A stretch of 64,000 bases of DNA, taken from Candidatus Alcyoniella australis (GTDB lineage: Bacteria; Lernaellota; Lernaellaia; JAVCCG01; Alcyoniellaceae). This document shows, piece by piece, positions 12,494 to 50,500 of this stretch (positions are counted from its first letter, which is position 1; each line of letters starts with the position of its first letter). A program made the translations under genes and the position numbers. The DNA is taken from assembly GCA_030765605.1 (NCBI GenBank), contig JAVCCG010000017.1, positions 35,582-99,581 of the forward strand. Reading direction: 5' to 3'. Under the pieces are notes generated by a model. That model was not told where the DNA came from. It did no database searches and saw nothing but the letters and a program-made list of their open reading frames with translations.

Positions 12494-13414
12494 ATGGACT
12501 TGTATGACAGCGTAATAATCGGTGCCGGCCCCGCCGGACTGACGGCTGCGATCTACGCCGGCCGCGGCGGAATTAACGGCGTGCTGCTCGAGCGAATGAT
12601 TCCCGGCGGCCAGATCGCGGCCACCGAGTTGGTCGAGAACTACCCCGGATTTCCAGAGGGGATAATGGGCGCGGACCTCGCGGCCAAGATGCGCGAACAG
12701 GCGCTCAAATTTGGCGTGAACATCGAGAGCATCGACGTCGAGGCCGTGCAGCGGGCCGACGACGGATTTGAGATCCACGGCTCGGGCAAGACCCTGCACG
12801 CACGTAGCGTGATTCTGGCGATGGGTACCCAGCCGCGGATGCTGGGCATCAGCGGCGAGGCCGAGTTCTTCGGCCGCGGCGTCTCGACCTGCGCCACATG
12901 CGACGGCCCGCTCTACCGCGGCAAGCAGGTGGCCGTGATCGGCGGCGGCGACTCGGCGATCCAAGAGGCGCTGTTTCTGACCAAATTCTGCTCGCGGGTG
13001 CACGTGATCCATCGCCGCGACGCCCTGCGCGCAGTGCCGGCTCTGGGCGAGCGCGCCAAAGCATCGGAGAAGATCGAGATCCACTGGGACAGCGTGCCGC
13101 TGGCCGTGCTCGGCGACAACAGCGGAGTCAGCGGACTGCGCCTGCGCAACGTCAAGACCGACGAGCAGTCCGAGCTGGAGCTGCCCGGCGTGTTCATGTT
13201 CATCGGTTTGCTGCCTAACATCGCCTGCGCCCAGCCGCTGGGGCTCAAGCTGGACGAGGGGCGCTTCATTCTTACCGACCAGCAGCTCGCCACGTCGATC
13301 CCCGGCGTATTCGCTGCGGGCGACATTCGTTCCAAGACCCAACGTCAGCTGGTGACCGCAGTGGGCGACGGTGCCCAGGCGGTGTTTAGCGTCGAGAGGT
13401 ATCTCGAACCGTGA
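12494..13414 (+). CDS. trxB: thioredoxin-disulfide reductase
   Basis: VIIGAGPAG FAD motif, CATC redox-active dithiol and a second GGGDSA NADPH motif; 306 aa. Confidence 0.85.
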   Translation: MDLYDSVIIGAGPAGLTAAIYAGRGGINGVLLERMIPGGQIAATELVENYPGFPEGIMGADLAAKMREQALKFGVNIESIDVEAVQRADDGFEIHGSGKTLHARSVILAMGTQPRMLGISGEAEFFGRGVSTCATCDGPLYRGKQVAVIGGGDSAIQEALFLTKFCSRVHVIHRRDALRAVPALGERAKASEKIEIHWDSVPLAVLGDNSGVSGLRLRNVKTDEQSELELPGVFMFIGLLPNIACAQPLGLKLDEGRFILTDQQLATSIPGVFAAGDIRSKTQRQLVTAVGDGAQAVFSVERYLEP

Positions 13415-14172
13415 GCATCGAGGTCGACCTTTCCGGACAGGTCGCGCTGGTCAGCGGCGCTGGACGCGGCATCGGCGCTGCCATCGCCCTGAGCCTGGCG
13501 CGCTGCGGCGCCGACGTGGCGCTGGGCGCGCGTAGCGCGGCGCAGCTCGAGGCCGTGGCCACGCAGATCGAGGCGCTCGGACAGCGGGCGCTGGTAGTGC
13601 AGGCCGACCTGCGCGAGCCCGAGGCCGCCGAATCCATGGTGCAGCGCACCCAGGCGGGTCTGGGCGGTCCGCAGATCCTGGTGCACGCCGCGGGCGTCGA
13701 ACGCCACAAGGCCACGCTCGAGACCTCGGACGAGGACTACGCCGCGGTGCTCGACACCAACCTGGGGTCGTGCTTCCGGCTTTGCCGCGCCGCGGGTCGG
13801 ACGATGATCGAGGACAGCGGCGGCAGCATCCTGCTGATCGCCTCGGTGGGCGCGTTCGTGGCCATGCCGCGCAACGCCCCGTACCACGCGAGCAAGGCCG
13901 GGATGGTGATGCTCGCTAAGTCCCTGGCCGTGGAGTGGGCGCGCCACGGAATCAGGGTCAACGCCCTGTGCCCAGGCTACGTGCAGACCGCGATGCTCGA
14001 CTCGCTGCTGGGCGACGAGCAGCGCAAGGAGCGCTTTCGCAAGATGATTCCCCTGCGACGCTTTGCCGATCCCGATGAGATCGGCCGACTGGCGGCCGTG
14101 CTCGTCTCTCCGCTGAGCTCGTACATAACCGGCACCGCGATCGTGGCCGACGGTGGAATCAGCGCAAGCTAG
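13411..14172 (+). CDS. SDR family oxidoreductase
   Basis: VSGAGRGIG cofactor motif and YHASKAG catalytic motif. Translationally coupled to trxB (GTGA overlap). Confidence 0.75.
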   Translation: MSIEVDLSGQVALVSGAGRGIGAAIALSLARCGADVALGARSAAQLEAVATQIEALGQRALVVQADLREPEAAESMVQRTQAGLGGPQILVHAAGVERHKATLETSDEDYAAVLDTNLGSCFRLCRAAGRTMIEDSGGSILLIASVGAFVAMPRNAPYHASKAGMVMLAKSLAVEWARHGIRVNALCPGYVQTAMLDSLLGDEQRKERFRKMIPLRRFADPDEIGRLAAVLVSPLSSYITGTAIVADGGISAS

Positions 14173-14293
14173 CCCGGCTTTGAGCCGGCACAAATCTCGC
14201 GTATTACGCTGGTCGTTGACCAACGATCCACTCCGCGACGCGGAAAATATCGTGGAGCAACGTGCTTAGTCCGCTCGCGTGTTTTACCGCACT

Positions 14294-14833
14294 TCAATGG
14301 TGCTGGTTCGCCCAGATGCCGATTTCCCTATCGCGGGCCTGCTGCTCGACCTCGAGATAGTGCTGCTTGAGCTGCTGGTCGTAGTCAAAGTGACGGATGA
14401 CCTCGGCCAGTCCCTGCTCGATCATCAGTTCGGAAAAGTCACTGCCGTCGGGCAGCTCCACATGGGCCAGCAGTCGGCCGTATTTATCGCGGTGGCTGCG
14501 CTGCTCGTTGGCCCGATCCAGACGCAGCAGCACGCGCCTGCTTGAAAGCAGAGTGCGGGCCTGCTGCTTGGCCTTCTGGGCATAGGGCTGGTCCGGACTC
14601 CCGGCGCGGGCCAATTCCGGAGTGTCGATTCCGATTACGCGTACGCGCTCGATCCGTCCGTGTTCGTCAATGCGAGCGTTGAATGTATCGCCGTCTATCA
14701 CGGTTACGACCTTAGCGCTAAGCTCGTTTTTCCCTGCTGCGGCGTTGTCCTGTGCAGCGCGATGCAGGCCGACGCTGACCAGCACGGCGGCAATTATCAG
14801 CAGCGGTAGAATCCAGCGGATTTGTTTTCTCAT
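14294..14833 (-). CDS. thermonuclease (SNase-like) family protein, secreted
   Basis: VIDGDTF...IDTPE...YGRLLA motifs and an N-terminal TM/signal segment. Confidence 0.65.
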   Translation of the reverse strand: MRKQIRWILPLLIIAAVLVSVGLHRAAQDNAAAGKNELSAKVVTVIDGDTFNARIDEHGRIERVRVIGIDTPELARAGSPDQPYAQKAKQQARTLLSSRRVLLRLDRANEQRSHRDKYGRLLAHVELPDGSDFSELMIEQGLAEVIRHFDYDQQLKQHYLEVEQQARDREIGIWANQHH

Positions 14834-15072
14834 CGAAATACTCCCACGGTCGATCAACTAAAAAAGTATATCGCGGATCAGGTGCGAGACTTAGTTGTCT
14901 GGACAGGCATGCTTTGTCTAGCCTTCATCAAGAATGCGGACGAAGACACTGTTGGTGAAGAATTCGGGATAGCCTGCGGCACGACTTTGCAGTAAGATTT
15001 GACCTCAGGTTGCGCGCGAAAACCGTGCGGAGTAACCTTTGAGTCCCGCAGCCACTCAGGCGTTGAGCAACA

Positions 15073-19567: not shown

Positions 19568-21259
19568 ATGTGTAAACCCACTGCCGTGGACCCAGTTCTT
19601 CGGCTGCCGCTGATCGTTCTTCTGCTGTTGTGCCTGTTTATTGCGGCTTGCGGCGACCGGCAACAACCTCCAGCTCAACGCAGTCACGAGGCGCCCGATG
19701 TGAGCTTCGGTGCAAACCGCGCAGCCGCGGTCTCGGCCACGGACTGGCCGCGGGCGTTGGTCGCGCCCGAGGTGCGTGAGCTGCCGCAATTGCGTCCCGG
19801 CCAGGCGATTGCGGGCAAGCCCGGCGGTCCATTGGTGGTGCTGGGGATCGACGGCGCGGACTGGCAGGTGCTTGGGCCGCTACTGGCGCGCGGCGAGCTG
19901 CCCAATCTGGCGCGTATTTTGGCCTGCGGAGCGTACGGGTTTTTGGAAACCGACGTGGGCTACTCGCCGATCTCCTGGTCGACCATCGCCTGCGGCGCAT
20001 CGCGTGACCGCCACGGCGTGGGCTATCAGACGGCCCTGGACCCGCAGCTCAGCTCGCGGCTCAAGGTGCCGCCGCTGTGGGAGATCGCCCTGGACCGCGG
20101 GCGCTCGGTGGGCGTGGTGCAGGCCTACTTCGGCATGGGATTGCCCGACAAGCGCGGCAGCTATTGGGGCATGCTCAAGTGGCCGCAGAACGAGATCGAG
20201 CTTTACAACGCACAGCTCCCCGAGGGCCTGTCAGCCGCGATGCCCCAAGGATTCGCCGAACTCAACCGCAGCGACGTCAAGGCCTATTTGGCCACCGAGC
20301 GGCTGCCCGATTTGTTCTTCACGATCATCGACAGTCTCGACGTAGCCTGCCATTACAACCTGCACGGGTTCGTTGCCGCGCGTCCCGGGGCCGCGCCGTC
20401 CGAGCCATCCGCCGCAATGCTGCGGGCGATGGCGCAGCGCATAGAACAGACCGCCGTCGGTATCGATGCCGTGCTGGGCTACGTCTGGGATCGTCTGCCA
20501 GAGCAGGCGACCCTGGTGCTGGTCAGCGACCACGGACAGGGGATTCTCGACCTGCGCTACGAGCTGCGGCCGGGATGGGCCATGTTGCAGGCCCTGGGTT
20601 GCGAATCCATCGAGCCCGGTCAACAGGCCTGCCGCATCGAGGCCGGGACGCTCGATGTGCGGTATGAGCGCAAAACCTTGCGGCGTCCCTGGATCGAGCT
20701 GCGCGGTGTCGAGCTGCCGCTGGAAGTCGAGTACGGCTCGATCGAGATCAGGCCCGGCAACGTCGATGCGGCGCAGTACGCAGCTTGGGCCGACGCCTTG
20801 GAGCAGAGTCTGCCGCGCCAGGGGCCCGAGGCGTTGTACTCAAAAGTGCAGCGTGATGGTGAGCGGATCGTACTGCAGCCGCTCGATCCGTGGCGCGCGG
20901 TGCTCGAGGCAAAGCCCCATGAGCAGATGGCGCAGTGGGAGCGCTACCCGCGTTTTCTTGCCAATCACGGCGAGGCAAACCCGGGGATAGTGGTTTTTGC
21001 CGGGCCGGGGATCATGCCCGGCCGCACGATCGAGGGTGCACGCCTCGAGGATGTCGCGCCCACCGCGCTCTATGCCATGGGCCTGGCTCCGGCCGACACC
21101 ATGACCGGCCGCGTGCTCAGCCAGGCGTTCAGCGAGCAGCGGCTGGCCGCTTACCCGCCCAAACCGCCGCGCAGCTATGCGCGCGTGGAGTGCCAGGCGC
21201 CGCCGGGCGCGGACGCGCAGACCCTGGAGCGCCTCAGGTCGCTGGGCTACCTGCACTAG
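19568..21259 (+). CDS. alkaline phosphatase-superfamily lipoprotein (type I phosphodiesterase/nucleotide pyrophosphatase-like)
   Basis: Lipobox LFIAAC and VVLGIDGADW metal-site motif. The start is chosen at ATG 19568 (in frame with the longer ORF 19295). Confidence 0.55.
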   Translation: MCKPTAVDPVLRLPLIVLLLLCLFIAACGDRQQPPAQRSHEAPDVSFGANRAAAVSATDWPRALVAPEVRELPQLRPGQAIAGKPGGPLVVLGIDGADWQVLGPLLARGELPNLARILACGAYGFLETDVGYSPISWSTIACGASRDRHGVGYQTALDPQLSSRLKVPPLWEIALDRGRSVGVVQAYFGMGLPDKRGSYWGMLKWPQNEIELYNAQLPEGLSAAMPQGFAELNRSDVKAYLATERLPDLFFTIIDSLDVACHYNLHGFVAARPGAAPSEPSAAMLRAMAQRIEQTAVGIDAVLGYVWDRLPEQATLVLVSDHGQGILDLRYELRPGWAMLQALGCESIEPGQQACRIEAGTLDVRYERKTLRRPWIELRGVELPLEVEYGSIEIRPGNVDAAQYAAWADALEQSLPRQGPEALYSKVQRDGERIVLQPLDPWRAVLEAKPHEQMAQWERYPRFLANHGEANPGIVVFAGPGIMPGRTIEGARLEDVAPTALYAMGLAPADTMTGRVLSQAFSEQRLAAYPPKPPRSYARVECQAPPGADAQTLERLRSLGYLH

Positions 21260-21274
21260 GCGGCTTGGCGCCGC

Positions 21275-21416
21275 GGCCAAACACGCGCAGTACGCTGGTC
21301 CTATTACAATGGGCCTCCCCGCGACGAAAGATTTTGGGGGTAGGCAAAGGTCGATAAATCGATCTTTGTGTGTAGGCTCGCCTGGGGGCACCTTTGAGGT
21401 GCCCGCAAAACTCGCG
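21275..21416 (+). repeat. palindrome-containing intergenic repeat element, copy A
   Basis: About 140 bp. Contains the TCGATaaATCGA palindrome and the GGGCACC-tttga-GGTGCCC hairpin. Near-identical to copy B, which lies 197 bp downstream. Confidence 0.8.
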
Positions 21417-21471
21417 AGCGGACCAGGGTCGTAGTGCAACGACCTTCTCCGCGACGGCAGCTTTGAGGTGC

Positions 21472-21613
21472 GGCCAAACACGCGCAGTACGCTGGTCCTA
21501 TTACAATGGGCCTCCCCGCGACGAAAGATTTTGGGGGTAGGCAAAGGTCGACAAATCGATCTTTGTGTGTAGGCTCGCCGGGGGGCACCTTGTGAGGTGC
21601 CCGCAAAACTTGC
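21472..21613 (+). repeat. palindrome-containing intergenic repeat element, copy B (tandem with A)
   Basis: Direct repeat of copy A with a few substitutions. It is flanked by CCCCGCGACG (5') and CGTCGCGG(G) (3') inverted motifs. Confidence 0.8.
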
Positions 21614-21792
21614 GCAGCACGACCCAACGCTCCGCCCCGCGTCGCGGCATGGGTCGACGCTAGACGACCAGGGAAATCTGCGAGCCATGCCCCGGCTCGA
21701 AGCCGCCCCCGCGAGCGTTTGCTCAAATATTGTAATTACAATATTTATCCCCCTTGTTCCTCGGCATATCAGGATAAAGCTGCGGATCAGCG

Positions 21793-21822
21793 TTGACAGC
21801 GCCGGGCATGCTGATTACAATC
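21793..21822 (+). promoter_or_regulatory. sigma70-like promoter (TTGACA-18 bp-TACAAT)
   Basis: Near-consensus hexamers upstream of the Lys-rich Rho_N-like gene. Confidence 0.5.
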
Positions 21823-21871
21823 TGCGCCCGGTCCTAGGGGCCGGTAAAGCTCTGAACCCACGGAGGCGCTT

Positions 21872-22180
21872 GTGCAAAAAGATCAGCTGCTCAAATTGAC
21901 CGTTCCCAAACTGCGCGAAGAGGCGCTGAAAGTCGAGACCATCTCCGGTGTCACCGGGATGAGCAAGACCGAGCTGATCCACGAGCTCGCCGCGCACTTC
22001 GGCATCGTGATTGATGTCGAAAAAAAGAAACGCGTCGACACCTCGGTGTTGAAGAAGCAGCAGAAGGCGCTACGCGAGGAGAAGGAAAAGATCCGCCCCG
22101 AGGCCGACCGCAAGCAGCTCAACATTTTGCGCAAGAAGATCAAGAAGACCAAACGCCAGACCCGCAAGGCCGTGATCTAG
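21872..22180 (+). CDS. Rho-N/SAP-like domain protein with Lys-rich tail (candidate nucleoid-associated protein)
   Basis: GTG start with GGAGG SD. N-terminal LKLTVPKLREEALKVETISGVTGMSKTELIHEL resembles the Rho N-terminal helix-hairpin. The C-terminal 55 aa are about 40% Lys/Arg. Confidence 0.45.
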   Translation: MQKDQLLKLTVPKLREEALKVETISGVTGMSKTELIHELAAHFGIVIDVEKKKRVDTSVLKKQQKALREEKEKIRPEADRKQLNILRKKIKKTKRQTRKAVI

Positions 22181-22208
22181 CCCGGACTTATTCATGCTGT
22201 AAAATAAA

Positions 22209-22237
22209 AGCCCCCGCCGATCGGCGGGGGCTTTTTT
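22209..22237. terminator. bidirectional rho-independent terminator between the Rho_N-like gene and tal
   Basis: Perfect palindrome GCCCCCGCCGA/TCGGCGGGGGC, flanked by an A-run upstream and a T-run downstream. Confidence 0.8.
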
Positions 22238-22909: not shown

Positions 22910-22977
22910 TCCTTATCGAGCCTGGAAACATTTGTATTGTGCACACATTGTAGCCGCGTCGCGGCTGGGGACAAGGT

Positions 22978-24174
22978 CTATTCAACTTCCGCGCCGAGCA
23001 TTTTGCGAATGCCGCGCACAGCCTGTTTGATTCGTGGTTCGTTTTCGACCAGGGCGAAGCGCACGTAGCCCTCGCCGAACTCGCCGAAGCCGATGCCCGG
23101 GCTGGCCGCCACTTTGGCCTCGGCCACCAGCCGTTTGCAAAAGGCCAGCGAACCCTCGTCGCGGTACTGCTCGGGAATCTGAGCCCAGACGAACATCGTG
23201 CCGCGCGGCTTATCCACCGGCCAACCGGCGCGCACCAGCCCGTCGCACAGCGCGTCGCGCCGCGAGCGATAGGTCTCGACGATCCCGCGCGTCACCTCGG
23301 GGTCGGAGCGCAACGCGATCACTGCCGCGATCTGGATCGGCTGAAATACTCCGTAATCCAGGTAGCTCTTCATGCGGCCCAGGGCCGCGATCATCTGCTT
23401 GTTGCCCACGGCGAAGCCCACGCGCCAGCCGGGCATGTTGTAACTCTTGGACAGCGAGTAGAACTCCACGCCCACGTCCTTGGCCCCGGGCACCTGCATC
23501 AGGCTCGGAGCCCGGCCCTCGAACATCAGATCAGCGTAGGCGAAATCGTGGATCAGCATCACCTGGTTGCGCCGCGCCCAATCGACCAGCCGTTCGAAGA
23601 ACTCGAGGTCGACCATCGCCGCGGTCGGGTTGTGCGGGAAGCTGAAGATCAGCGCCTTGGGCTTGGGCCAGGTAGTGCGGCCGGCCTCGAGCAGGTCGGC
23701 GAAGAAGTCGCGGTCCGGGCCGATCGGCACCGAGCGGATGTTGCCGCCGGCGATGCCCACCGAGTAGATGTGGATCGGGTAGGTTGGGTTGGGCACGAAC
23801 ACTACGTCCTCGGGTCCGATGCAGGCCAGCACCAGGTGCGCCAGCCCTTCCTTGGAGCCAATGGTGACGATCGCCTCGTGCTCGGGGTCGATATCTACGT
23901 CGTAGCGCTCGGAGTAGTGCTCCGCGATTTGGTTGCGCAGGCCGGGGATCCCCTTGCTCATCGAGTAGCGGTGGTTCTTGGTTTCACGCACGGCCTCGAC
24001 CAGCCGCTCGACAATGTGCGGCGGCGTGGAGCCGTCGGGGTTGCCCATTCCGAGGTTGATGATGTCGTCGCCGGCGCGGCGTGCGGCCATCATCTGCTGC
24101 ACTACCTCGGAGAAGACGTAGGGTGGCAGACGCCGCATGCGGTGGAATCGTTCGGAGAGCCAGTTGTCGGTCAT
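22978..24174 (-). CDS. class I/II PLP-dependent aminotransferase (AlaA/AspC-like)
   Basis: 398 aa. [18 protein letters not shown]-lysine motif typical of AlaA-type aminotransferases. Confidence 0.75.
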
Positions 24175-25600: not shown

Positions 25601-26404
25601 CTATTCGCAGGCCGTAGCGCGCATCAGCAGTTCGGCCTCGAGTTGGTTGCTCACCGCTCCCAGGGCGTCGGCGACCTGTACGCTGAACTGTGACGACGAC
25701 TCCGCGGGCGCGGTTTCGGTCAGGGTTACCTCAAGCTCCAGAGTTCCCTCGGTCTGTTCCAGATCCGGGGAGATGATGAACGGATTAATGCTTCCTTCAT
25801 CGATGATGACCAGAATCATCCCACCGCCGAGATTGCCGTCGAGATCGGCGAAATCGACCAGCATCGTGCTGGTGCTGCCCACCAGATTGCACACCGGGTT
25901 GGGATCGAAGCGCAGGTTGCTGATCGAGGGTGTGCGGTTGGCCGGGGCCACCTCGAACGTCGCCTCGAGTACGTTGCTTTGGTTACCCGCGGCGTCGACG
26001 ATCCAGACGGCTAGTAGATGCTCACCAGGTTGCGCGTCCTCGGCCGGCAGCACATTGGACATCAGCTCGCCCTCGCCGCGCTCCTCGTGGATGATCGTCA
26101 CCGGCTCGCGCTCCACCGTATCCACTGCCGCGTGAATCGATCCGCCGATCAGGTCGGCATCGGGATCAACGAAATGGATCACGAAGTTCAGCGCGCCGCC
26201 CTGTGGCACCTGCTCGGGGTAGGTGATCAACTCCGAGATCTGCGGCGCACTGTAGTCGTCGTCATCGTCGTCGTCGATGTCGTCGTCCTGGTCGTCGTCA
26301 TCATCATCATCGTCGTCGCCGCTATCCGCGCAGGCTGCCAGCAGCAGCGCGGTTAGGGCGATAGCGAGCAGAATGCGCCAAAGTGTGATGCGTGTTGTTT
26401 TCAC
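25601..26404 (-). CDS. lipoprotein with poly-Asp linker, function unknown
   Basis: Lipobox LLAAC followed by ADSGDDDDDDDDDQDDDIDDDDDDD. Confidence 0.55.
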   Translation of the reverse strand: MKTTRITLWRILLAIALTALLLAACADSGDDDDDDDDDQDDDIDDDDDDDYSAPQISELITYPEQVPQGGALNFVIHFVDPDADLIGGSIHAAVDTVEREPVTIIHEERGEGELMSNVLPAEDAQPGEHLLAVWIVDAAGNQSNVLEATFEVAPANRTPSISNLRFDPNPVCNLVGSTSTMLVDFADLDGNLGGGMILVIIDEGSINPFIISPDLEQTEGTLELEVTLTETAPAESSSQFSVQVADALGAVSNQLEAELLMRATACE

Positions 26405-30107: not shown

Positions 30108-31505
30108 CTAAGCCTCAAATCTGAGCGCCGCAATCAGCGCCAGCGCCGCGGGCTCGAGCTCGTGCGGCTCTAGGGTGCGCGGATCGAGCAGCAGCCGTTC
30201 GCGGCTGATGCGCGCGATCAACGGTGGATCGCCACGGCGCAGCCTTGCGGCCAGCTCGTCCACCGAAACCGCGAGCGGCTCGATCGCCACAGCGCGGGTC
30301 GGCAGTTCGATCAACGGCAGCGCGCCGCCCCCGGCGCGACTGGTCTCGTCGACGATCTCGAGCTTGGCCGCGCCCTGCGGCAGCGACGCCAGTAGCTCGA
30401 CCAACCGTGCGGCGCGCTGTTGCAACTGCGTTGGATCGATGGTCAGGGCAGCCAGGGTCGGCACCTCGCGTATCGCGGTTTGCGGGTCGAGCGAGAGCCG
30501 CAGGGTCGCCTCCAGAGCGGCCAGGGTCATCTTGTCCAGGCGCAGAGCGCGCGCCAGCGGATGGCGCTTGCAGCGCGCGATCAGTTCGGACTTGCCCGCC
30601 AGGATCCCGGCCTGCGGTCCGCCGAGCAGCTTGTCGCCCGAGAACGTGACCAGGTCCACGCCCTCGTCGAGCACTTGGCGCGCGGTGGGCTCGTCGCCCA
30701 ATCCCCACTGCGCGAGGTCGATCAGGCAGCCCGAGCCCAGGTCCTCGACCAGCGGCAGGCCGTGTTCGCGGCCAAGCGCTGTCAGTTCGCCGCGCGAGAC
30801 CTCTTGGGTAAAGCCGACGATGCGGTAGTTGCTGGTGTGCGCGCGCAGCAGCAGCGCAGTGTCCGGGCCGATGGCCTGTCGGTAGTCGCTCAGGTGGGTC
30901 TTGTTGGTCGAACCGACCTCGACCATCTGGGCGCCAGAGGCGGCCATCACTTCTGGAATGCGGAACGATCCGCCGATCTCGACCAGCTGCCCGCGGCTGA
31001 CGATCACCTGTTTGTCGCCGGCCAACGCAGCCAGGGCCAAAAGCACCGCGCCGGCGTTGTTGTTCACGGCGAACGCGTCCTGCGCACCCGTGGCCTCGAT
31101 CAGCAGCTCGCGCACCAGATCGTGGCGCGAACCGCGCTCGCCGCGCTCCAGGTCGTACTCCAGGGTCGAGTAGCTCACTGCGCAACGCTGCGCAGCCCGG
31201 GCCGCCTCGGCGGCCAAACGGCTGCGGCCCAGGTTGGTGTGAAGCACGATTCCCGTGGCGTTGAGCACCGGCTCGAGGCGCGGCCGCAATCTACGTTGCA
31301 GCTCGCCGGACACCAGCTGGGGCCAGCTCGCGGACTGGGGCGGCCCTGCGCCCTGGATGATAGCCTGCCGTACACGCTCCACGGCTGAGCGTGCCGCGGC
31401 CCCCACGTGGGTCCGGCCGTGTTTCTCGATCAGGCCCTTGACCGGCTCGAGTTCGAGCAGCGCTCCCACCTGGGGCAGGCTGCGCAACGCATCTTTAGCA
31501 GTCAT
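30108..31505 (-). CDS. selA: L-seryl-tRNA(Sec) selenium transferase (selenocysteine synthase)
   Basis: 465 aa. Long colinear similarity to my recollection of E. coli SelA (VLHTNLGR, SYSTLEYDL, VNNNAGAVLL, VIVSRGQLVEIGGSFRIPEVM, FSGDKLLGGPQAGI, DKMTLAALEATLRL). Confidence 0.85.
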   Translation of the reverse strand: MTAKDALRSLPQVGALLELEPVKGLIEKHGRTHVGAAARSAVERVRQAIIQGAGPPQSASWPQLVSGELQRRLRPRLEPVLNATGIVLHTNLGRSRLAAEAARAAQRCAVSYSTLEYDLERGERGSRHDLVRELLIEATGAQDAFAVNNNAGAVLLALAALAGDKQVIVSRGQLVEIGGSFRIPEVMAASGAQMVEVGSTNKTHLSDYRQAIGPDTALLLRAHTSNYRIVGFTQEVSRGELTALGREHGLPLVEDLGSGCLIDLAQWGLGDEPTARQVLDEGVDLVTFSGDKLLGGPQAGILAGKSELIARCKRHPLARALRLDKMTLAALEATLRLSLDPQTAIREVPTLAALTIDPTQLQQRAARLVELLASLPQGAAKLEIVDETSRAGGGALPLIELPTRAVAIEPLAVSVDELAARLRRGDPPLIARISRERLLLDPRTLEPHELEPAALALIAALRFEA

Positions 31506-34815: not shown

Positions 34816-34990
34816 CCTGCAGTTCTCCCGCCGCCCGCTGACGCGGGCCGTCATGCTTACCAATAATCCGGGTTTGCAATGGAGCGCCGGACCTGTCCGG
34901 CCCAGATTTGCCAAAGCATAGGGAAAGGGGTCGCGCCAGTCAACGCCGGTTGGTTACTGTTTCGCCGTGGACTACTAGGCTAGTGGAAAA

Positions 34991-35058
34991 GATCGAGAAA
35001 TCGATCTTTATGTGTAGGCTCGCCGGGGGCACCTTTGAGGTGCCAGCAAAACTCGCGC
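34991..35058 (+). repeat. palindrome-containing intergenic repeat element, copy C (diverged core)
   Basis: GATCGAGAAATCGATC...GTGTAGGCTCGCC...GGCACCTTTGAGGTGCC...AAAACTCGCGC matches the core of copies A/B. Confidence 0.7.
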
Positions 35059-35344
35059 ATAAAGGTTGGTTTTTAACAACGACCAATCCCGCGTCGCGGA
35101 GAGCATCGTTGGACAATGATTATGGTCGCTCGCGTGCCTTGCTGCAGCTCATAGCTGCCTCGCGGGGTGTTCGAAATTTATTTTGAGGTGGGCTGCGTGC
35201 TTTTCCACGCGTATGTCGAAGAAAACGTGCGTGGAGAACCTTGTTCGGCTGACATGCTGACTGTTGAGGGTCGCGGATACTGTCAAAGGCGGCATGCACT
35301 CCGACATTAATAAATTTCGTTCCAATGCCCCGCGAGCGCTTACT

Positions 35345-39516: not shown

Positions 39517-40065
39517 CTACTCGACCGTGAATTCGGCCTGGCCCAGCAGGCCGTTTTGAGCGTCGATCACCTCGACGCGCCAACGTCCGGTCTGCGAGGG
39601 TGCGATCGTCTTGTACGAGTAGGTGCGGAACGGCGTGCTGCGGATCTCGAGTGCGATGCGCGAGACCGGCTGATCCTCGTAGTACCAGACGTGGGTCACG
39701 CTGGTGGGCTCGACGAACGGCTCGAGGGCCACGCGCGAGAGGCAGTAGACACGGCCCACATCCGCGGCAAAGACCTCGGAGGGGCTCACGGCCTCGTGAT
39801 CCTCCACGCCTAGGCAGAACACGAGCTGCACCGAACGTTCCAACAACGTTTCTTGCTGGGGTGCCGCCGCAGTCGGCAAGGCCGCGGGTGCCGGTGTGGG
39901 CGTGGGAGTAGGCGTGGGAGTGGGAGTAGGAGTAGGAGTAGGAGTAGGAGTGGGAGTAGGAGTAGGCGTGGGAGTAATCGGCCCCGGATCCTGTCCCTGT
40001 TGGGCCGCCGCGGGCAGGGCCGTGAGCAGCACGAATAGCAGGCAGATCAGCAGGCTGAGCCTCAT
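39517..40065 (-). CDS. secreted protein with (Thr-Pro)14 linker, function unknown
   Basis: Signal peptide, then TPTPTP... repeat, then a roughly 110-aa C-terminal domain. Confidence 0.5.
   Translation of the reverse strand: MRLSLLICLLFVLLTALPAAAQQGQDPGPITPTPTPTPTPTPTPTPTPTPTPTPTPTPAPAALPTAAAPQQETLLERSVQLVFCLGVEDHEAVSPSEVFAADVGRVYCLSRVALEPFVEPTSVTHVWYYEDQPVSRIALEIRSTPFRTYSYKTIAPSQTGRWRVEVIDAQNGLLGQAEFTVE
39893..39976. repeat. tandem hexanucleotide repeat (14 units, GGNGTR-like) encoding (TP)14
   Basis: 84 bp of near-perfect 6-nt units within the CDS at 39517..40065. Confidence 0.8.
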
Positions 40066-42230: not shown

Positions 42231-44435
42231 ATGAAGCGCTGGATATTTATGGCGATGCTGCTGGCGACCCTGGCCCTTGTGTTTACCATCGGCGGCGGTT
42301 GCAGCTGCAGCGGCGATGATGACGACGACGACGACGATGATGACGATGACGATGACAACCAAGGCGATGTGCCCGACGAGGCGTTTCAGGAGATCTGCGG
42401 CGAGCGCGACTGGCTTGATACCTTGCAGCCGACCGAGCTGGTCTACGACTCGGGCAACGAGTTCGGCAACGACGGCCGCCTGCATTACGACCTGGCCGAG
42501 GGCGACGTGGCCGCGGTGCACTTTATTCCCGAGCACTCGCTGTGGATCAAGAAGCTCCGCGTGCACTTCACCGGCGAGGGGGGGCCGATCCGGGTCCACG
42601 TCTATGAGGGGTACGGCCGCTCGCGTCCGAACACCGACGTCGACCTGACCGAACCGATCGAGCAGGATATCGAAACCGACGCCGGATGGGTCGAGATCGA
42701 CATCAGCGACCGCCAGCTGGTGGTGCTGCCCTCGAACCACTTCTGGGTCGGTTACGAGCACGTCAACGAGCAGCCCTACATCAGCATGGACAACGGCGTG
42801 GACAACGATTCGACCCACAGCCTGATCCGCATCGAGGCCGCGCAGCACGATATCAGCCCCTTCGATTGGATCGGCCTGGGCGACGTGGCGTTTATGATCC
42901 AGGTTACGGGCGACTACTTCTGCGAACTGGATATCAACGAGCGCCAGTTCACCAACGTCAGCGAGCAGGCCGGACTCTCCGAGCTCTCGGCTGTGCGCAT
43001 CAACTGGGGCGACGTCAACAACGATGGCTGGGACGACATGCTCCTGCATCGTCTGGGCTATATCGACGAAACCGCCAATCTGCTGCTCAACAATCAGGAC
43101 GGTACGTTCGAGAACGTCACCGACGATTCGGACCTCGACGGCCACTACGCGAGCTTCGGCGGCCTGGCCGATTTTGACAACGACGGCAACCTCGATGTGT
43201 ACCTCGGGGTCAACGTACCCAATGAGGACGCCGATCCGCCGGACAACGGCGCGCGTTCGCTGATCATGCTCGGCGACGGCGAGGGCGGATTCACTGAAGT
43301 CGCGGGCAACGGCGTGGACCTCGAAGCCTCGACGTCCGCGGCCTCCATCGCCGACTACGACGCCGACGGCGACCTCGACATTTACGTGGGCAACTGGCTG
43401 GTCAAGTACCCCTCTCCGGCGTGCTGGTCCGACTTCATTTTTAACGGCAAGGGCAACGGCAAGTTCGATGAGACCTCCGCCGCGACCGGCATCGCCGTCC
43501 TTGAGGCGCGTCCGAGCTACGGCGTGACTTGGGTCGACTTCGACATGGACAACGACATGGACATCTCGGTCGCCAACTACGGCCGCGTCGACAACTTCCT
43601 GCTCGAAAACAAGAACGGACACTTCACCGACGTCGCGCCCCAAGTCGAGCTCGACCGCCAGGGCGTGGGCACCGGCGGCAACACCTTCGGCACCGACTGG
43701 GGCGACGCCAACAACGACGGCTACTTCGATACCTACCAGGCCGAGATCGCCCACCCGCGCTACCAGCCCAGCTCGGACATCGGCTCGATGATGTTCGGAA
43801 TGGGCCCGGACGAGGACTGGCTGTTCCAGAATGTTACCGAAGCCGCCGGGATCTTCTACGACGAGGGGCAGGTCGACCCCAGCTGGGTCGACTACAACAA
43901 CGACGGCCGCCTCGATTTCGCGCTCAGCGTGCTCTACACGTTGCAATACTTCCGGCTCTACCGCCAGGAAGAGGACGGTACGTTCACCGACGTGACCTAC
44001 ATCACCGGCACCGAGATTCTGGACACCAACAACAACGCCTGGGCCGACTTTGACAACGACGGCGACATGGACCTGATGAACATGGACCGCCGTTCCGGCG
44101 GGCACGCCAACCTGTTCCGCAACGACATCGGCAACGAGCTGAACTGGCTCGAGATCAGCCTGCGCGGCACCGACTCCAACCGCATGGCCGTGGGCGCGCG
44201 GGTCGAGATTTCCAGCCCGAGCATCGAGTACCAGGTGCGCTACGTGCAGGCGGGCAAGGGACACGCCTGTAGCCAGCATTCGGCGCGGCTGCACTTCGGC
44301 CTGAACACCGACGATGTGGTGCAGATCCTGACCGTCTACTGGCCCTCGGGATTGGAAGAGGAGTTCGGCGAGATCCCGGCCAACAGCTGGATCAAGATCA
44401 CGGAGGGCGACGACGACTACGAGGTCGTGCAGTAA
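42231..44435 (+). CDS. CRTAC1-family lipoprotein (FG-GAP/VCBS repeats plus ASPIC/UnbV domain) with poly-Asp linker
   Basis: Lipobox GGGCSC, then D14. Repeated DxDxDGxxD calcium-loop motifs. C-terminal RMAVGARVEI...HFGL (UnbV/ASPIC-like). Confidence 0.6.
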   Translation: MKRWIFMAMLLATLALVFTIGGGCSCSGDDDDDDDDDDDDDDNQGDVPDEAFQEICGERDWLDTLQPTELVYDSGNEFGNDGRLHYDLAEGDVAAVHFIPEHSLWIKKLRVHFTGEGGPIRVHVYEGYGRSRPNTDVDLTEPIEQDIETDAGWVEIDISDRQLVVLPSNHFWVGYEHVNEQPYISMDNGVDNDSTHSLIRIEAAQHDISPFDWIGLGDVAFMIQVTGDYFCELDINERQFTNVSEQAGLSELSAVRINWGDVNNDGWDDMLLHRLGYIDETANLLLNNQDGTFENVTDDSDLDGHYASFGGLADFDNDGNLDVYLGVNVPNEDADPPDNGARSLIMLGDGEGGFTEVAGNGVDLEASTSAASIADYDADGDLDIYVGNWLVKYPSPACWSDFIFNGKGNGKFDETSAATGIAVLEARPSYGVTWVDFDMDNDMDISVANYGRVDNFLLENKNGHFTDVAPQVELDRQGVGTGGNTFGTDWGDANNDGYFDTYQAEIAHPRYQPSSDIGSMMFGMGPDEDWLFQNVTEAAGIFYDEGQVDPSWVDYNNDGRLDFALSVLYTLQYFRLYRQEEDGTFTDVTYITGTEILDTNNNAWADFDNDGDMDLMNMDRRSGGHANLFRNDIGNELNWLEISLRGTDSNRMAVGARVEISSPSIEYQVRYVQAGKGHACSQHSARLHFGLNTDDVVQILTVYWPSGLEEEFGEIPANSWIKITEGDDDYEVVQ

Positions 44436-46983: not shown

Positions 46984-47517
46984 TTAGCCGGCCCGGAGGG
47001 TCCGTTCCTGCTCGGACATCTCGCTGCGAATGCGCATGATGTCCTGCGGGTCGTGCAAGCTGATCTTGTGAAGTCGGGCGCGCAGGCCCGCGGTGTCGTA
47101 CTCGTAGCGCCGACGGTCCACGGTGTGCACCAGGCGGATCCGGCCGTAGGGGTTGGCCGCGGTCAGGCACATCATCATCCGCGGCACGTCGCCGATCGGC
47201 GGCAGGGCGTCGCCCTGGGTGTTGAGCATGGCGCTGACTTTGGTGCCGCCGGTCTTGATGTGGGTGATGGCGCAACGGCCGTTGCACTGCTTGGCCAGGG
47301 CGTGCAACCGCTGCAAGCCCCGGGAGCGCTCGAAGTAATCCTGGTCAAAGTCAAACGACCTGGGCGCGTCCGCCTCGAATCGACCGTCGTCAATAACCGT
47401 GATCTCCACCCGTGGTTTGGACCCGTTGGTCTCGCGGATCGAGATCTCGATACTATCGGCCTGATGCGACAGCATGTTCATGCCCACGTCGAGGATTAAC
47501 TGCGAGATTTCGCTCAT
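46984..47517 (-). CDS. GHKL/HATPase_c-like ATP-binding protein (anti-sigma-kinase-like), standalone
   Basis: N-box-like NMLSH, G1-like VIDDGRF and G2-like SRGLQRL, in the order seen in RsbW/SpoIIAB-like proteins. Confidence 0.35.
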   Translation of the reverse strand: MSEISQLILDVGMNMLSHQADSIEISIRETNGSKPRVEITVIDDGRFEADAPRSFDFDQDYFERSRGLQRLHALAKQCNGRCAITHIKTGGTKVSAMLNTQGDALPPIGDVPRMMMCLTAANPYGRIRLVHTVDRRRYEYDTAGLRARLHKISLHDPQDIMRIRSEMSEQERTLRAG

Positions 47518-48157
47518 TGCGCTCTCCGGGTTTTACTAATCAGTTGCTACCCGGTTCCAGGGGCGCGGTTGAGCATCGATCTGATGGGGGGTAATGGCGG
47601 TGGTCGCCTCCCGGCAATACTCCACGGTAAGAGGATGATATGGGCTATCATTGGGAGCCTGAAAATGAAGCAGGTTGTAGCATGATGTGACGGTTTTGCT
47701 GTTTGCCGGTCGGTTAAGGAGGGAAGCGACCACCAACCAAGAAAACTGATAAGCCGGGCTTGCGCCCTTGGGTACCGGGAGTGGCAGGCTTGCCATCAGT
47801 TGTCTTTGCATTATTGTTTCCTACGCATGACTACCGGCGATGGGCCATGGCGGCGACTCATGGTGCAAATCAATGTTGTGAATGTCGCCGCCACGAACCG
47901 TGGTGAAAACAATACAAGTGTCGTGCCAAAACCAGGAGTTTTCGATAGACGTGGTAAATGGCAGCGATTACATTATTGTATAGTTATAGACTTATAGTGC
48001 GCCCCGGGCCCAAGTGTAATGATAATGTGACACTGAAAGGGCTTCATCGTGTTGAAATGCTACACAAATAGCTAACAAAACGTATATAAACAAGTACTTA
48101 ATGATTTGAGTACGATGTTTCGGGGCAGAGACAAAATGACCGAAAATCGACCAATTA
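47518..48157. other. 640-bp AT-rich intergenic island (local GC far below the window average) containing a 9-bp-stem hairpin
   Basis: Long A/T runs (for example tatagttatagacttatag and aaacgtatataaacaagtactta) and the hairpin GGCGGCGAC-26 nt loop-GTCGCCGCC at 47848-47891. No convincing ORF. Confidence 0.7.
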
Positions 48158-50500
48158 TTACTGCAAAATCTTGAAATTTTGCTCCAGGGAGCGGCTGTTG
48201 CCCGCGCGATCGGTAACTTGAAGTTTGATTGTGTGCTCGCCGGGCTCCAGATTTTGGTCCGGGATGTATTTGATCCAGCCTCGCGGACCGTTGCTCTCGC
48301 CCACCACGCGTTGGCCATCGAGGGTCAGGACCGTGTTGCCCGCCGGAATGCCCGAGCCCGCGTCGCTGACCACGAAGCTCAGAGCCGGTCGCGCATTGCG
48401 CAATTTGGCGTTGGCGCGTGGCCCGGTCCACTTGATGTACGGCCGTTGCACGTCGCGCATCAGCGCGAAAGTGCCCAGTTGCGGCGCCCGTCCGCTGATG
48501 GTGCGCGAGGCTGGGTCGTGGTTAAAACCCATCTGCCACCAGCGGCCGGAGTCGTAGTAGTAGACTCCCACGCCGTTTGGGGTCTGGCCCTCGGGCAGCT
48601 TGATGCTCACCCCGATTTTGCCGCCCAGGGGCACGCCCTTGCGCTCGATGCAATAGGCCGCTCCCACCTGTTGCAGGCCCTGTTTGGGCTCGGGGACAGT
48701 CGTCTGTTCCAGCGTGGTGTAGAACGGACGCTCCAGCGTGCCCCGGCCGAGGCGCACGGCGAACCGGCCGTCGTTCGATTTAAGCCTGGCACCCCCGCGC
48801 GCGAGCTGCAGCGGCGCTGCAATGTTTGCGCGGACCTCGCGGCCTTGGCGGTCGCGTCCGCTGGCGCTGATCGACAGCGGGGTCGAGACGATGTTGTTGT
48901 TGTCCAGGATCGCCATGTAACGGCCGTTGCCCTGCCAGACGCCGGGCAGCAGCACCTCGTCCTCGCCCCCTCCGCTGACCTTTACCGTGGGCTCGCGCAG
49001 CAGCGGCTCTGCGGTGTTGATCACGATCTCGGTGTACAGCTCGCGCAGCCGGTAGCTGATCGAGATCTGCGGCAGTGCGGCAGCCTGTTCGATGGTGGGT
49101 CGAGCGTAGAACAGCCGCCATGGGGAATGCAGCCCGTGCCCGTCCTGGGTCCGCGCTTTGATCAGCAGGCCCTCAAGCGCTCGGCCCATGGGCGGCTCGA
49201 GCTCCCAACGTCCGGCGTCAAGCGCGTGCGTTGTGGCCGCATGCCACGAGCGTCCGTGGTCGGCGGACCAGGCGCTCTCCAAGAGCAGGTTGGGCTCGCC
49301 GTCAGGGTCGCTGCCTCCCAGCAGCACGCGCGTTTGTTCAGTCTCGATGCGGAACAGCTCGGGCGCGCGGTTGGCGATCAAGGTCAGCTCGACCACCGTG
49401 CTGTTGTCCGAGACGTCCGTGGCGATCAACCGCAACGTGTGCTCGCCCTGGGGCAGATCGCGGATTACGCCATCGCCATCCAGGTCAAAGGCCGTTTGCT
49501 CGACCCACTTGCGGAACAGCCGGTGATAGCCGTGGCCGTGCCGGAAGTACAGCTCGAGGTCGTAGGCGTAGTTGATCACCTGCTTGTGCTCGTAGCAGGA
49601 GCGCTGGAACTGCGAGAGGAAAATCGTCTTGCCGTCGAGCTCGGCGCGCAGTTGGTAGGGCGCCAGGATGCGGTCCGAGCCGTCGATGCGGTCGATAACC
49701 CGCAGCCCGAATCCAACCTCGCCGCTGATCGAGATCGGCCTGCCCGAGCTGTAGTGACCGTCGCGTTTGACCAGCGGCAGCACCGGCTTGGAGCGTCCGC
49801 CGTTGACCGTGGCGTCGTGGCTCAGTGGATCGATGAAGATTTCCAGCGGCTGGGGCGGGATGCTGTCGTCGCGGAAGAAGCCGTGGGTCAACGGGTTGAG
49901 CGGGCAGTTGTCCGGGCCGCGCAGCTCGAAGTGCAAATGCGGCGAGCTGGTGCCGGTGTTGCCCGCGTAGCCGATCACCTGGCCCGCCGTGACCTTGATC
50001 TCGCCGGGCTTTAGGAACAGGTCGGCCTCGTACGAGCCGATCTGCCGGTGATAGGCGCGCATTCGAGTCCAGATTTCGTCGATCATTCCGTCGAGGTGGG
50101 CGTAGACCACGGTGTTGCCGTCCTCGAGCCGGATGTACAGCGCCTTGCCGTAACCCACGGCGCTGGTGCGCGCGCGGCAGACCCAGCCGTCGGCCACAGC
50201 CACCACCGGCGTGCCGATCACGCCGTAGGTCGACAGGTCGAGCCCCGCGTGAGGGTGGCCGATGCGGTATTCGCCGAAGTTGCCCGAGATGCGAATCGGC
50301 GTCAGCAGCGGCCAAAGATAACCGCGGTCCGAGACAAAGCTTTGGGGCTGCATCTGCGGGACCTGTTGGGCCTGGGCCAGGGTGGCGGGGACCGGATCGG
50401 CGGCCACGGCCGGAACAGCGGTCAGCAGTACGGCCAGCGTCAGCGCGGCGATGGTTCTGAGCATGTCCAGGATCCGAAATTGCGGCGCGACCGGCCTCAA
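48158..50500 (-). CDS. M23 family metallopeptidase (LytM domain) with C-terminal repeat domains
   Basis: HPHAGLD and GNTGTSSPHLHFE motifs. The start is uncertain: TTG at 50500 or ATG at 50465. Confidence 0.75.
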   Translation of the reverse strand: MRPVAPQFRILDMLRTIAALTLAVLLTAVPAVAADPVPATLAQAQQVPQMQPQSFVSDRGYLWPLLTPIRISGNFGEYRIGHPHAGLDLSTYGVIGTPVVAVADGWVCRARTSAVGYGKALYIRLEDGNTVVYAHLDGMIDEIWTRMRAYHRQIGSYEADLFLKPGEIKVTAGQVIGYAGNTGTSSPHLHFELRGPDNCPLNPLTHGFFRDDSIPPQPLEIFIDPLSHDATVNGGRSKPVLPLVKRDGHYSSGRPISISGEVGFGLRVIDRIDGSDRILAPYQLRAELDGKTIFLSQFQRSCYEHKQVINYAYDLELYFRHGHGYHRLFRKWVEQTAFDLDGDGVIRDLPQGEHTLRLIATDVSDNSTVVELTLIANRAPELFRIETEQTRVLLGGSDPDGEPNLLLESAWSADHGRSWHAATTHALDAGRWELEPPMGRALEGLLIKARTQDGHGLHSPWRLFYARPTIEQAAALPQISISYRLRELYTEIVINTAEPLLREPTVKVSGGGEDEVLLPGVWQGNGRYMAILDNNNIVSTPLSISASGRDRQGREVRANIAAPLQLARGGARLKSNDGRFAVRLGRGTLERPFYTTLEQTTVPEPKQGLQQVGAAYCIERKGVPLGGKIGVSIKLPEGQTPNGVGVYYYDSGRWWQMGFNHDPASRTISGRAPQLGTFALMRDVQRPYIKWTGPRANAKLRNARPALSFVVSDAGSGIPAGNTVLTLDGQRVVGESNGPRGWIKYIPDQNLEPGEHTIKLQVTDRAGNSRSLEQNFKILQ

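Follow-up and report, generated by a model that had tools for sequence, protein, structure and literature searches.

The window analyzed here, 64,000 nucleotides of Candidatus Alcyoniella australis, contains a family of hairpin-forming intergenic modules in about ten copies at three loci. It is a genuine, previously undescribed repeat family from an uncultured phylum, and it is of a familiar kind: by anatomy, the best match among known classes is the REP/BIME-type repeat. We lean, with moderate confidence, toward the explanation that these are lineage-specific modular extragenic palindromic repeats of this organism, of the REP/BIME or MITE kind, acting via local hairpins. Proteobacteria and a few other groups are well known to carry extragenic palindromic repeats. 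To our knowledge, none has previously been described for Lernaellota, a phylum that, as far as we know, is uncultured and represented by metagenome-assembled genomes (MAGs) only. Current understanding of bacterial repeats is left unchallenged by the family.

The repeat was flagged in a first-pass annotation of this DNA as two near-identical tandem copies with a period of 197 bp. A repeat search of the window returned a direct repeat of 136 nt with 95% identity and a spacing of 197 (21259-21394 and 21456-21591), together with two three-copy families, one at 21343-21387, 21540-21584, and 34985-35029 (91 to 96% identity) and the other at 21384-21416, 21582-21614, and 35025-35057 (82 to 97% identity). 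The 20-mer TCTTTNTGTGTAGGCTCGCC from the conserved linker occurs three times in the window, against 0.01 expected, and a covariance model built from the three cores (R1) scored the copies A, B, and C at 102 to 107 bits. The A/B array is absent from the TRF list because it comprises fewer than two full copies. These data confirm that the flagged repeat is far above chance and bear out the two tandem copies (A, 21336-21462; B, 21533-21652). The diverged third copy that had also been reported is present (C, 34978-35104), but it does not extend over the annotated 140 bp; its high identity to copy A is limited to a 75-nt core, which is accompanied by a diverged hairpin and a conserved tail.

What, then, is the repeating unit? 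It had been described as a 140-bp element with terminal inverted repeats. Our data revealed instead a basic module of ∼80 nt that comprises a short G+C hairpin (SL2, loop UUUGA), a CUCGCG linker, a variable second hairpin (SL3), and a CCGCGACG tail, with an optional A/T-rich hairpin on its 5′ side. The consensus from a MAFFT alignment of seven copies reads SL2, GCAAAMCWCGCG, an SL3 of the GGTCGT...ACGACC type, and the tail C(C/T)CCGCGACG. The optional hairpin, SL1, with its linker GTGTGTAGGCTCGCC, lies 5′ of A, B, C, and, in a more distant form, D, which together make up the SL1 subfamily; G has a possible degenerate SL1 remnant on its 5′ side (AAA-TAAA-TTT, ∼35180-35193). Each locus carries one inverted pair of modules joined tail-to-tail at the 11-bp palindrome CCGCGWCGCGG, which occurs five times in the window versus 0.5 expected. 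Locus 2 also carries the direct copies F0, A, and F1, giving the direct array F0-A-F1-B.

The copies were recovered by several routes. Searching the window with the tail motif CCGCGWCGCGG led to copy E, immediately downstream of the SDR stop codon at 14172, and the sequences before A (F0) and between A and B (F1) proved to be copies of the 3′ half. R1 gave a fourth, weak match beside copy B (21677-21753, minus strand, E = 0.02); in the MAFFT alignment, the reverse complement of this copy, D, runs collinearly with A, B, and C for ∼130 nt. A second covariance model, R2, represents the 3′-half module (83 positions, two hairpins) and was run against the window with filters off. It found G and H although both were absent from its training set. 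Each of these is inverted relative to a known copy and has the central palindrome in common with it, and therefore an inverted pair is present at every locus. The first-pass annotation had recognized the family only in part, and it had missed no fewer than seven additional module copies (D, E, F0, F1, G, and H, as well as the 3′ half of A). The features, in window coordinates, are as follows.

14166-14314, inverted pair E|H (locus 1)
14166..14248, plus strand, module E; motif search, R2 82.8 bits
14228..14314, minus strand, module H, inverted, tail-to-tail with E at the palindrome 14233-14243; R2 28.2 bits, E = 9e-6, outside the training set
21252..21334, plus strand, module F0; R2 79.7 bits, member of the training alignment
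21336..21462, plus strand, module A, full unit; R1 107 bits, R2 47 bits (partial match), pattern match
21448..21531, plus strand, module F1, tandem-duplicate counterpart of F0; R2 83.7 bits, repeat search
21533..21652, plus strand, module B; R1 105 bits, R2 58.5 bits, alignments
21575-21714, inverted pair B|D (locus 2)
21632..21758, minus strand, module D, inverted, tail-to-tail with B; independent R1 match (E = 0.02), MAFFT
34978..35104, plus strand, module C; R1 102 bits, R2 74.8 bits
35020-35166, inverted pair C|G (locus 3)
35084..35166, minus strand, module G, inverted, tail-to-tail with C; R2 63.4 bits, E = 3e-15, outside the training set

One borderline R2 match, inside the class I/II aminotransferase gene (23149-23237, minus strand, 17.9 bits, E = 0.005), is probably due to chance.

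Copy A shows the full unit. Its SL1 (21346-21367, AAAGGTCGA-TAAA-TCGATCTTT) is followed by the linker GTGTGTAGGCTCGCCTGG, by SL2 (21386-21404, GGGCACC-TTTGA-GGTGCCC) and GCAAAACTCGCG, by SL3 (21425-21446, AGGGTCGT-AGTGCA-ACGACCTT), and by the tail CTCCGCGACGG (21447-21457). Copy B has SL1 at 21543-21564 and SL2 at 21583-21602, lacks the 5′ arm of SL3 through a deletion, and ends in the palindrome 21637-21647, which is common to B and D. In copy C, SL1 (34988-35009) and SL2 (35027-35045) precede a diverged SL3 and the tail palindrome 35089-35099. The SL1 of copy D is a perfect 22-bp palindrome, AAATATTGTAATTACAATATTT (21725-21746); its SL2 is CGGCT-TCG-AGCCG (21693-21705), and its SL3 is GGTCG-TCTAGCGT-CGACC. 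Among the modules of the basic type, F0 has SL2 CGGC-TTGGC-GCCG, the linker CACGCGCAG, SL3 GGTCC-TATTACAAT-GGGCC, and the tail CCCCGCGACG, and E has SL2 CCGGC-TTTGA-GCCGG, SL3 GGTCGTT-GACC-AACGATC, and the tail CTCCGCGACGCGG. SL2 is GCAGC-TTTGA-GGTGC, with one mismatch, in F1 and GCAGC-TATGA-GCTGC in G. The 197-bp tandem repeat arose by a recent local duplication in which a unit made up of one F module and one SL1 module was copied.

With the copies aligned, several of the originally annotated motifs take a different form. A perfect palindrome had been assigned to each core, whereas the exact sequence TCGATaaATCGA is found in copy A only, and its counterparts are TCGACAAATCGA in copy B and TCGAGAAATCGA in copy C; the conserved feature of SL1 is a 9-bp stem, AAAGRTCGA / TCGATCTTT, with an NAAA loop. 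The 7-bp hairpin GGGCACC/GGTGCCC, likewise assigned to each core, is intact in A and in B (where this SL2 has a loop of 6 nt) but is reduced to 6 bp in C (GGTGCCA). Copy B had been thought to be bracketed by inverted, MITE-like terminal repeats. The motif on its 3′ side had been given as CGTCGCGGGG, but the actual sequence is CCCCGCGTCGCGGCA, the 11-bp palindrome CCGCGTCGCGG at 21637-21647, and the bracketing CCCCGCGACG motifs are the conserved tails of adjacent modules, namely, the tail of F1 and the joint tail of B and D.

Are the hairpins themselves maintained? In an alignment of nine modules derived from the model, pairing reaches 93% in SL2, where both partners have changed in three of the five pairs, and 71% in SL3, which shows register shifts. 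When A, B, C, and D were aligned with MAFFT, blind to structure, the 9 pairs of SL1 and the 4 pairs of SL2 were 100% paired; five of these pairs have changed on both sides, and slid partners pair at only 30 to 43%. These data are suggestive of hairpins kept through compensatory change, and they stop short of proof because the independent lineages are few. The non-Watson-Crick cells divide evenly between G-U and A-C (4 to 4), and therefore neither strand is favored. The fold z-scores of the three cores were −6.2 (copy A, 81 nt from SL1 to SL2, 21340-21420), −4.2, and −2.9 for the plus strand and −5.4, −2.9, and −4.5 for the minus strand.

The two arms of the inverted pairs are only 47% (B-D), 55% (C-G), and 50% (E-H) identical, below the identity of some non-partners (A-H, 73%), and therefore do not form a near-perfect long hairpin as in a REPIN or an ERIC/Correia-type MITE. 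Folding of whole loci likewise gave local hairpins and no single long stem. What is conserved is local structure, not a long dyad. We considered a rule by which every pair consists of a type-I arm and a type-II arm and dropped it, as the identity matrix is a continuum. Conservation along the unit is uneven as well. Copies A and C agree at 68 of 75 positions (91%) from just before SL1 to CTCGCG and at 13 of 30 (43%) in the SL3 region (Fisher P = 9e-7). This contrast reflects either stronger constraint on the core or a mosaic built by recombination or gene conversion.

The modules lie among housekeeping genes, which encode a Phosphodiest-family protein, transaldolase, an aminotransferase, an SDR, an SNase-like nuclease, a DegT-family aminotransferase, CarB, SelA, S-adenosylmethionine synthetase, and S-adenosylhomocysteine hydrolase. 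A scan of 40 of the 44 ORFs called in the window revealed no transposase (including Y1_Tnp/RAYT), integrase, or reverse transcriptase, and no paralogues were found within the window. All modules are intergenic at the three loci, with gene overlap restricted to stop-codon-proximal sequence, and they abut or overlap the stop codons of the SDR, SNase, and Phosphodiest genes. The Phosphodiest-family gene ends in TAG (21257-21259), and F0 starts immediately thereafter. The pair E|H occupies the entire 121-bp gap between two convergent genes: the SDR gene (13411..14172) ends in a TAG codon, at which E begins, and the SNase-like gene (14294..14857, minus strand) has its final six codons and its UGA stop inside H (14294-14314), the stop lying within the AUUGA loop of the SL2 of H. 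The 3′ end of this ORF is therefore supplied by the repeat. G lies in the sense orientation downstream of the DegT-family gene. A hairpin followed by a U-tract, as in a canonical terminator, was not found at any of the three module loci, SL2 being followed by GCAAAAC and the module tail by non-U sequence; canonical terminators occur elsewhere in the window (5403-26, 11650-77, 22207-34, and 44461-86).

Downstream of the whole array at locus 2 lies a gene for a small, Lys-rich protein of 102 aa, which by eye has a Rho_N/HeH-like N terminus and has no Pfam match. Its promoter, TTGACA-17-TACAAT at 21793-21821, is conserved upstream of homologues that are 51 to 58% identical in three other metagenomic lineages (L006, 9932-9962; L011, 9925-9953; L014, 9167-9195). 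A riboswitch or leader of this gene was ruled out by this promoter, which is the gene's own and lies 3′ of the array; since it is also conserved in three relatives that have no array, the modules are not the leader of the gene. The 5′ untranslated region of the gene contains a hairpin, CCGGTCC-TAG-GGGCCGG (21827-21843), that resembles the SL3 stem of the F modules.

How might such modules act? REP/BIME elements of Escherichia coli serve as 3′-end terminators or protective structures. The modules described here would act through their local hairpins, in RNA or in single-stranded DNA. Transcribed as the 3′ ends of upstream genes, they would form terminators that lack a U-tract, or structures that protect the 3′ end and block exonucleases; their position makes this candidate role a probable one. 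They may have spread by means of a transposase encoded elsewhere or by duplication and gene conversion.

Part of the family could, alternatively, be read as a gene. The SL1-linker-SL2 core (∼75 to 90 nt in A, B, C, and, distantly, D) would then be a multi-copy small RNA gene or structured RNA motif transcribed from the plus strand, with the SL2/SL3/tail module as its 3′ end, a reading that we consider unlikely but credible. The core is 91 to 95% identical between loci 13 kb apart while the flanks and the adjacent SL3 diverge, so that in A, B, and C it is far better conserved than the rest of the unit, and its changes sit in loops and junctions or preserve pairing, as in a change from G-U to A-U in SL1. 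The plus-strand z-scores are also in keeping with an RNA, but the minus strand folds nearly as well, and with only two independent sequence lineages the covariation is anecdotal. By reading of the folds, an outer helix (UGUGUAGG / CUYGCGCA, 7 to 8 of 9 pairs per copy) is possible. In A and B, a TACAAT box contributed by the F modules precedes SL1 by ∼35 nt, whereas in C the box is only TACTAG and lies ∼15 nt from SL1; a scan for sigma-70-like promoters found none upstream of A, B, or C. None of the three is followed by a U-tract terminator, and no Rfam family matches. Moreover, SL2 and the tail are present in modules without SL1 and in both orientations, and therefore a repeat fits better than a gene. 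A broader proposal, which we regard as distinctly unlikely, is that the modules are a new functional RNA or single-stranded DNA element specific to Lernaellota, for example, a bidirectional U-tract-independent terminator or a 3′-end processing signal, with a small RNA in the core. A dedicated protein would in this case recognize the UUUGA loop and the CUCGCG and CCGCGACG motifs, the 75-nt SL1-SL2 core found in A, B, and C would represent a small RNA encoded in multiple copies on the module scaffold, and the family would not be a selfish repeat.

The same sequences could also be read as duplex DNA. The palindromes (CCGCGWCGCGG, TCGA-N4-TCGA, and AAATATTGTAATTACAATATTT) might be operators or sites for nucleoid proteins, with the repeats as arrays of binding sites; this we judge to be very unlikely, because the SL1 and SL2 stems vary in sequence and yet stay complementary, as expected of a structure and not of a sequence-specific duplex site. 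No feature of the family is more conserved than the central 11-bp palindrome, and the wobble pairs show no strand bias, both of which fit binding sites. So does a lone copy of the palindrome, CCGCGTCGCGG at 22954-22964 (extended to AGCCGCGTCGCGGCT), which is flanked on the minus strand by a TACAAT box and a −35-like TTGTCC in the region upstream of the transaldolase gene and could be an operator or the remnant center of a module. The motif ATTACAAT occurs five times in the window versus 0.2 expected, all within 520 bp (21303-21821) beside the promoter of the Lys-rich 102-aa protein: in the SL3 loops of F0 and F1, in both halves of the palindrome 21725-21746, and in the −10 box of the 102-aa gene. 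A common −10 box or an operator half-site would be a possible explanation. On the other hand, E|H lies between convergent genes, with no promoter to regulate, and the copies are too divergent for the operator of a single regulon. A classical MITE, that is, a non-autonomous IS derivative with terminal inverted repeats inserted at three sites, appears highly improbable. The complete SL1-M|M′-SL1′ units (B|D, ∼225 bp; C|G, ∼210 bp) are imperfect palindromes of MITE size, and the ends of B|D can close by GGGGG/CCCCC. MITE insertions often supply the last codons and stop of a gene, as H does for the SNase gene. Against this, the arms of a pair are only 47 to 55% identical, whole units are unlike between loci, the boundaries are not sharp, and by reading, no target-site duplication or flanking direct repeat could be found at any locus; plasmid and phage sequences showed no similarity, and no transposase was found in the window. 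We withhold the MITE label because neither sharp termini nor target-site duplications could be defined and no parent IS was found in the window.

The favored reading, modular extragenic palindromic repeats, can be set against described families. The REP/BIME-like identity offered among the candidates of the first-pass annotation is the best fit, in view of the extragenic hairpin units, inverted pairs, direct arrays, and mosaic motifs. As in the REP/BIME elements of Enterobacteria and Pseudomonas, the units are extragenic imperfect-palindrome hairpins whose stems are kept by compensatory change; they occur in multiple copies, as singles, inverted pairs, and arrays mixed with other short motifs, forming mosaic clusters of alternating orientation; they are found at the 3′ ends of genes and in the gaps between convergent genes; and their sequence is lineage specific. 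Classical REPs, however, are 20 to 40 nt long with one hairpin, whereas the unit here, ∼80 nt (83 positions in R2) with two hairpins and an optional third, is 2 to 4 times longer, and its pairs are fused without a spacer at an exact 11-bp palindrome. The REPINs of Bertels and Rainey are REP doublets that form hairpins (PMC3116915, PMC3337134), their arms being 94 to 98% alike and folding into one nearly perfect long hairpin (PMC3337134). The window family is similar in having two related inverted units as its basic arrangement, alongside singlets and more complex arrays, but its partner arms are 47 to 55% identical and only the local hairpins are conserved, so that near-identical arms in one long hairpin are not seen.

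Larger elements with overall symmetry provide a further comparison, namely, Correia/NEMIS in Neisseria, ERIC/IRU in enterobacteria, and the modular BOX element of Streptococcus pneumoniae. Like these, the full pair here measures 150 to 225 bp with an overall imperfect dyad symmetry, is intergenic and probably co-transcribed with flanking genes, and is modular, with or without SL1 and with direct module repeats. There is no sequence similarity between any of them and this family. MITE-type elements differ further in that the copies here have no definable terminal inverted repeats with target-site duplication and are far more mutually diverged than those of active MITEs.

How widely is the family distributed? 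The MAG of Ca. Alcyoniella australis (phylum Lernaellota) is from Ace Lake, Antarctica (PMC9324843). The first-pass annotation had proposed an Rfam search, and the element matches no curated covariance model there: in Rfam 15, only a tRNA at 820-893 reaches the gathering score across the window, and at E ≤ 10 nothing is found at locus 2 and only noise (E of about 6 to 7) at loci 1 and 3. An exact-pattern scan with the conserved linker gave two matches among 185,579 species genomes, in an Aenigmarchaeota MAG and in Mesonia, which we take as chance, and two among 241 million metagenome records, both in coding sequence without hairpins. The pattern scan of viral contigs and a blastn search of plasmid and phage records each returned zero matches. 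Distinct sequence totaling about 87 kb, taken from three relatives via homologues of the adjacent 102-aa gene, likewise yielded zero copies with R1 and R2. The 102-aa protein matches a hypothetical protein of the Ca. Alcyoniella australis MAG at 100% identity, and outside the source organism its nearest homologue is 58% identical. For CarB, the best match among 5.8 billion proteins shows 70% identity and is no closer than those of Nitrospinota or NC10; with CarB at 70% at best, there is therefore no usable close relative. The same organism is present in another public assembly, ENA ERZ27315835, in which the 819-bp contig k141_344542 is identical to window positions 21416-22234. This contig runs from within copy A to the terminator of the 102-aa gene, and its start at 21416 is consistent with a repeat-induced assembly break.

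ORFs called inside the repeats had been dismissed as artefacts, and our data agree. The GC3 of ORF 21304..21726 is 0.57, compared to 0.75 to 0.91 for nearly all other called window ORFs, and a six-frame translation of the repeat (as a concatenated query) matched none of 5.8 billion protein sequences. Thus, repeat-internal ORFs look like artefacts. The module model explains such spurious ORF calls as well as assembly breaks in Lernaellota MAGs, provides a marker for strain typing and populations, and flags candidate 3′-end signals in a lineage for which transcription signals have otherwise not been studied. The 75-nt core, with its unusual degree of conservation, would be worth inspecting in metatranscriptomes.

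Several other readings were tried and rejected. The spacing GGCAC-N5-TTGC of a sigma-54 promoter is, by reading, not present. Integron attC sites were rejected given the housekeeping context and the lack of RYYYAAC / GTTRRRY core sites. The template and variable repeats of a DGR do not apply to copies that are non-coding in a window with no reverse transcriptase; four of the differences between A and C are A in copy C. A type III toxin-antitoxin repeat array was rejected as well.

Three further features of the window were recorded. A 640-bp intergenic region (47517-48158) without an ORF or repeat module looks markedly A/T-rich compared to the window (64% G+C). Microsatellite-like coding arrays are found at 39896-39976, 26255-26318, and 42321-42356, consisting of (GGAGTA)n with an 18-nt period in a DUF2914 gene and of (GTC)n / (GAC)n Asp-rich tracts. 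Finally, the gene for SelA (selenocysteine synthase) adjoins carB on the minus strand (30108-31505), and because of its presence, the organism probably uses selenocysteine.
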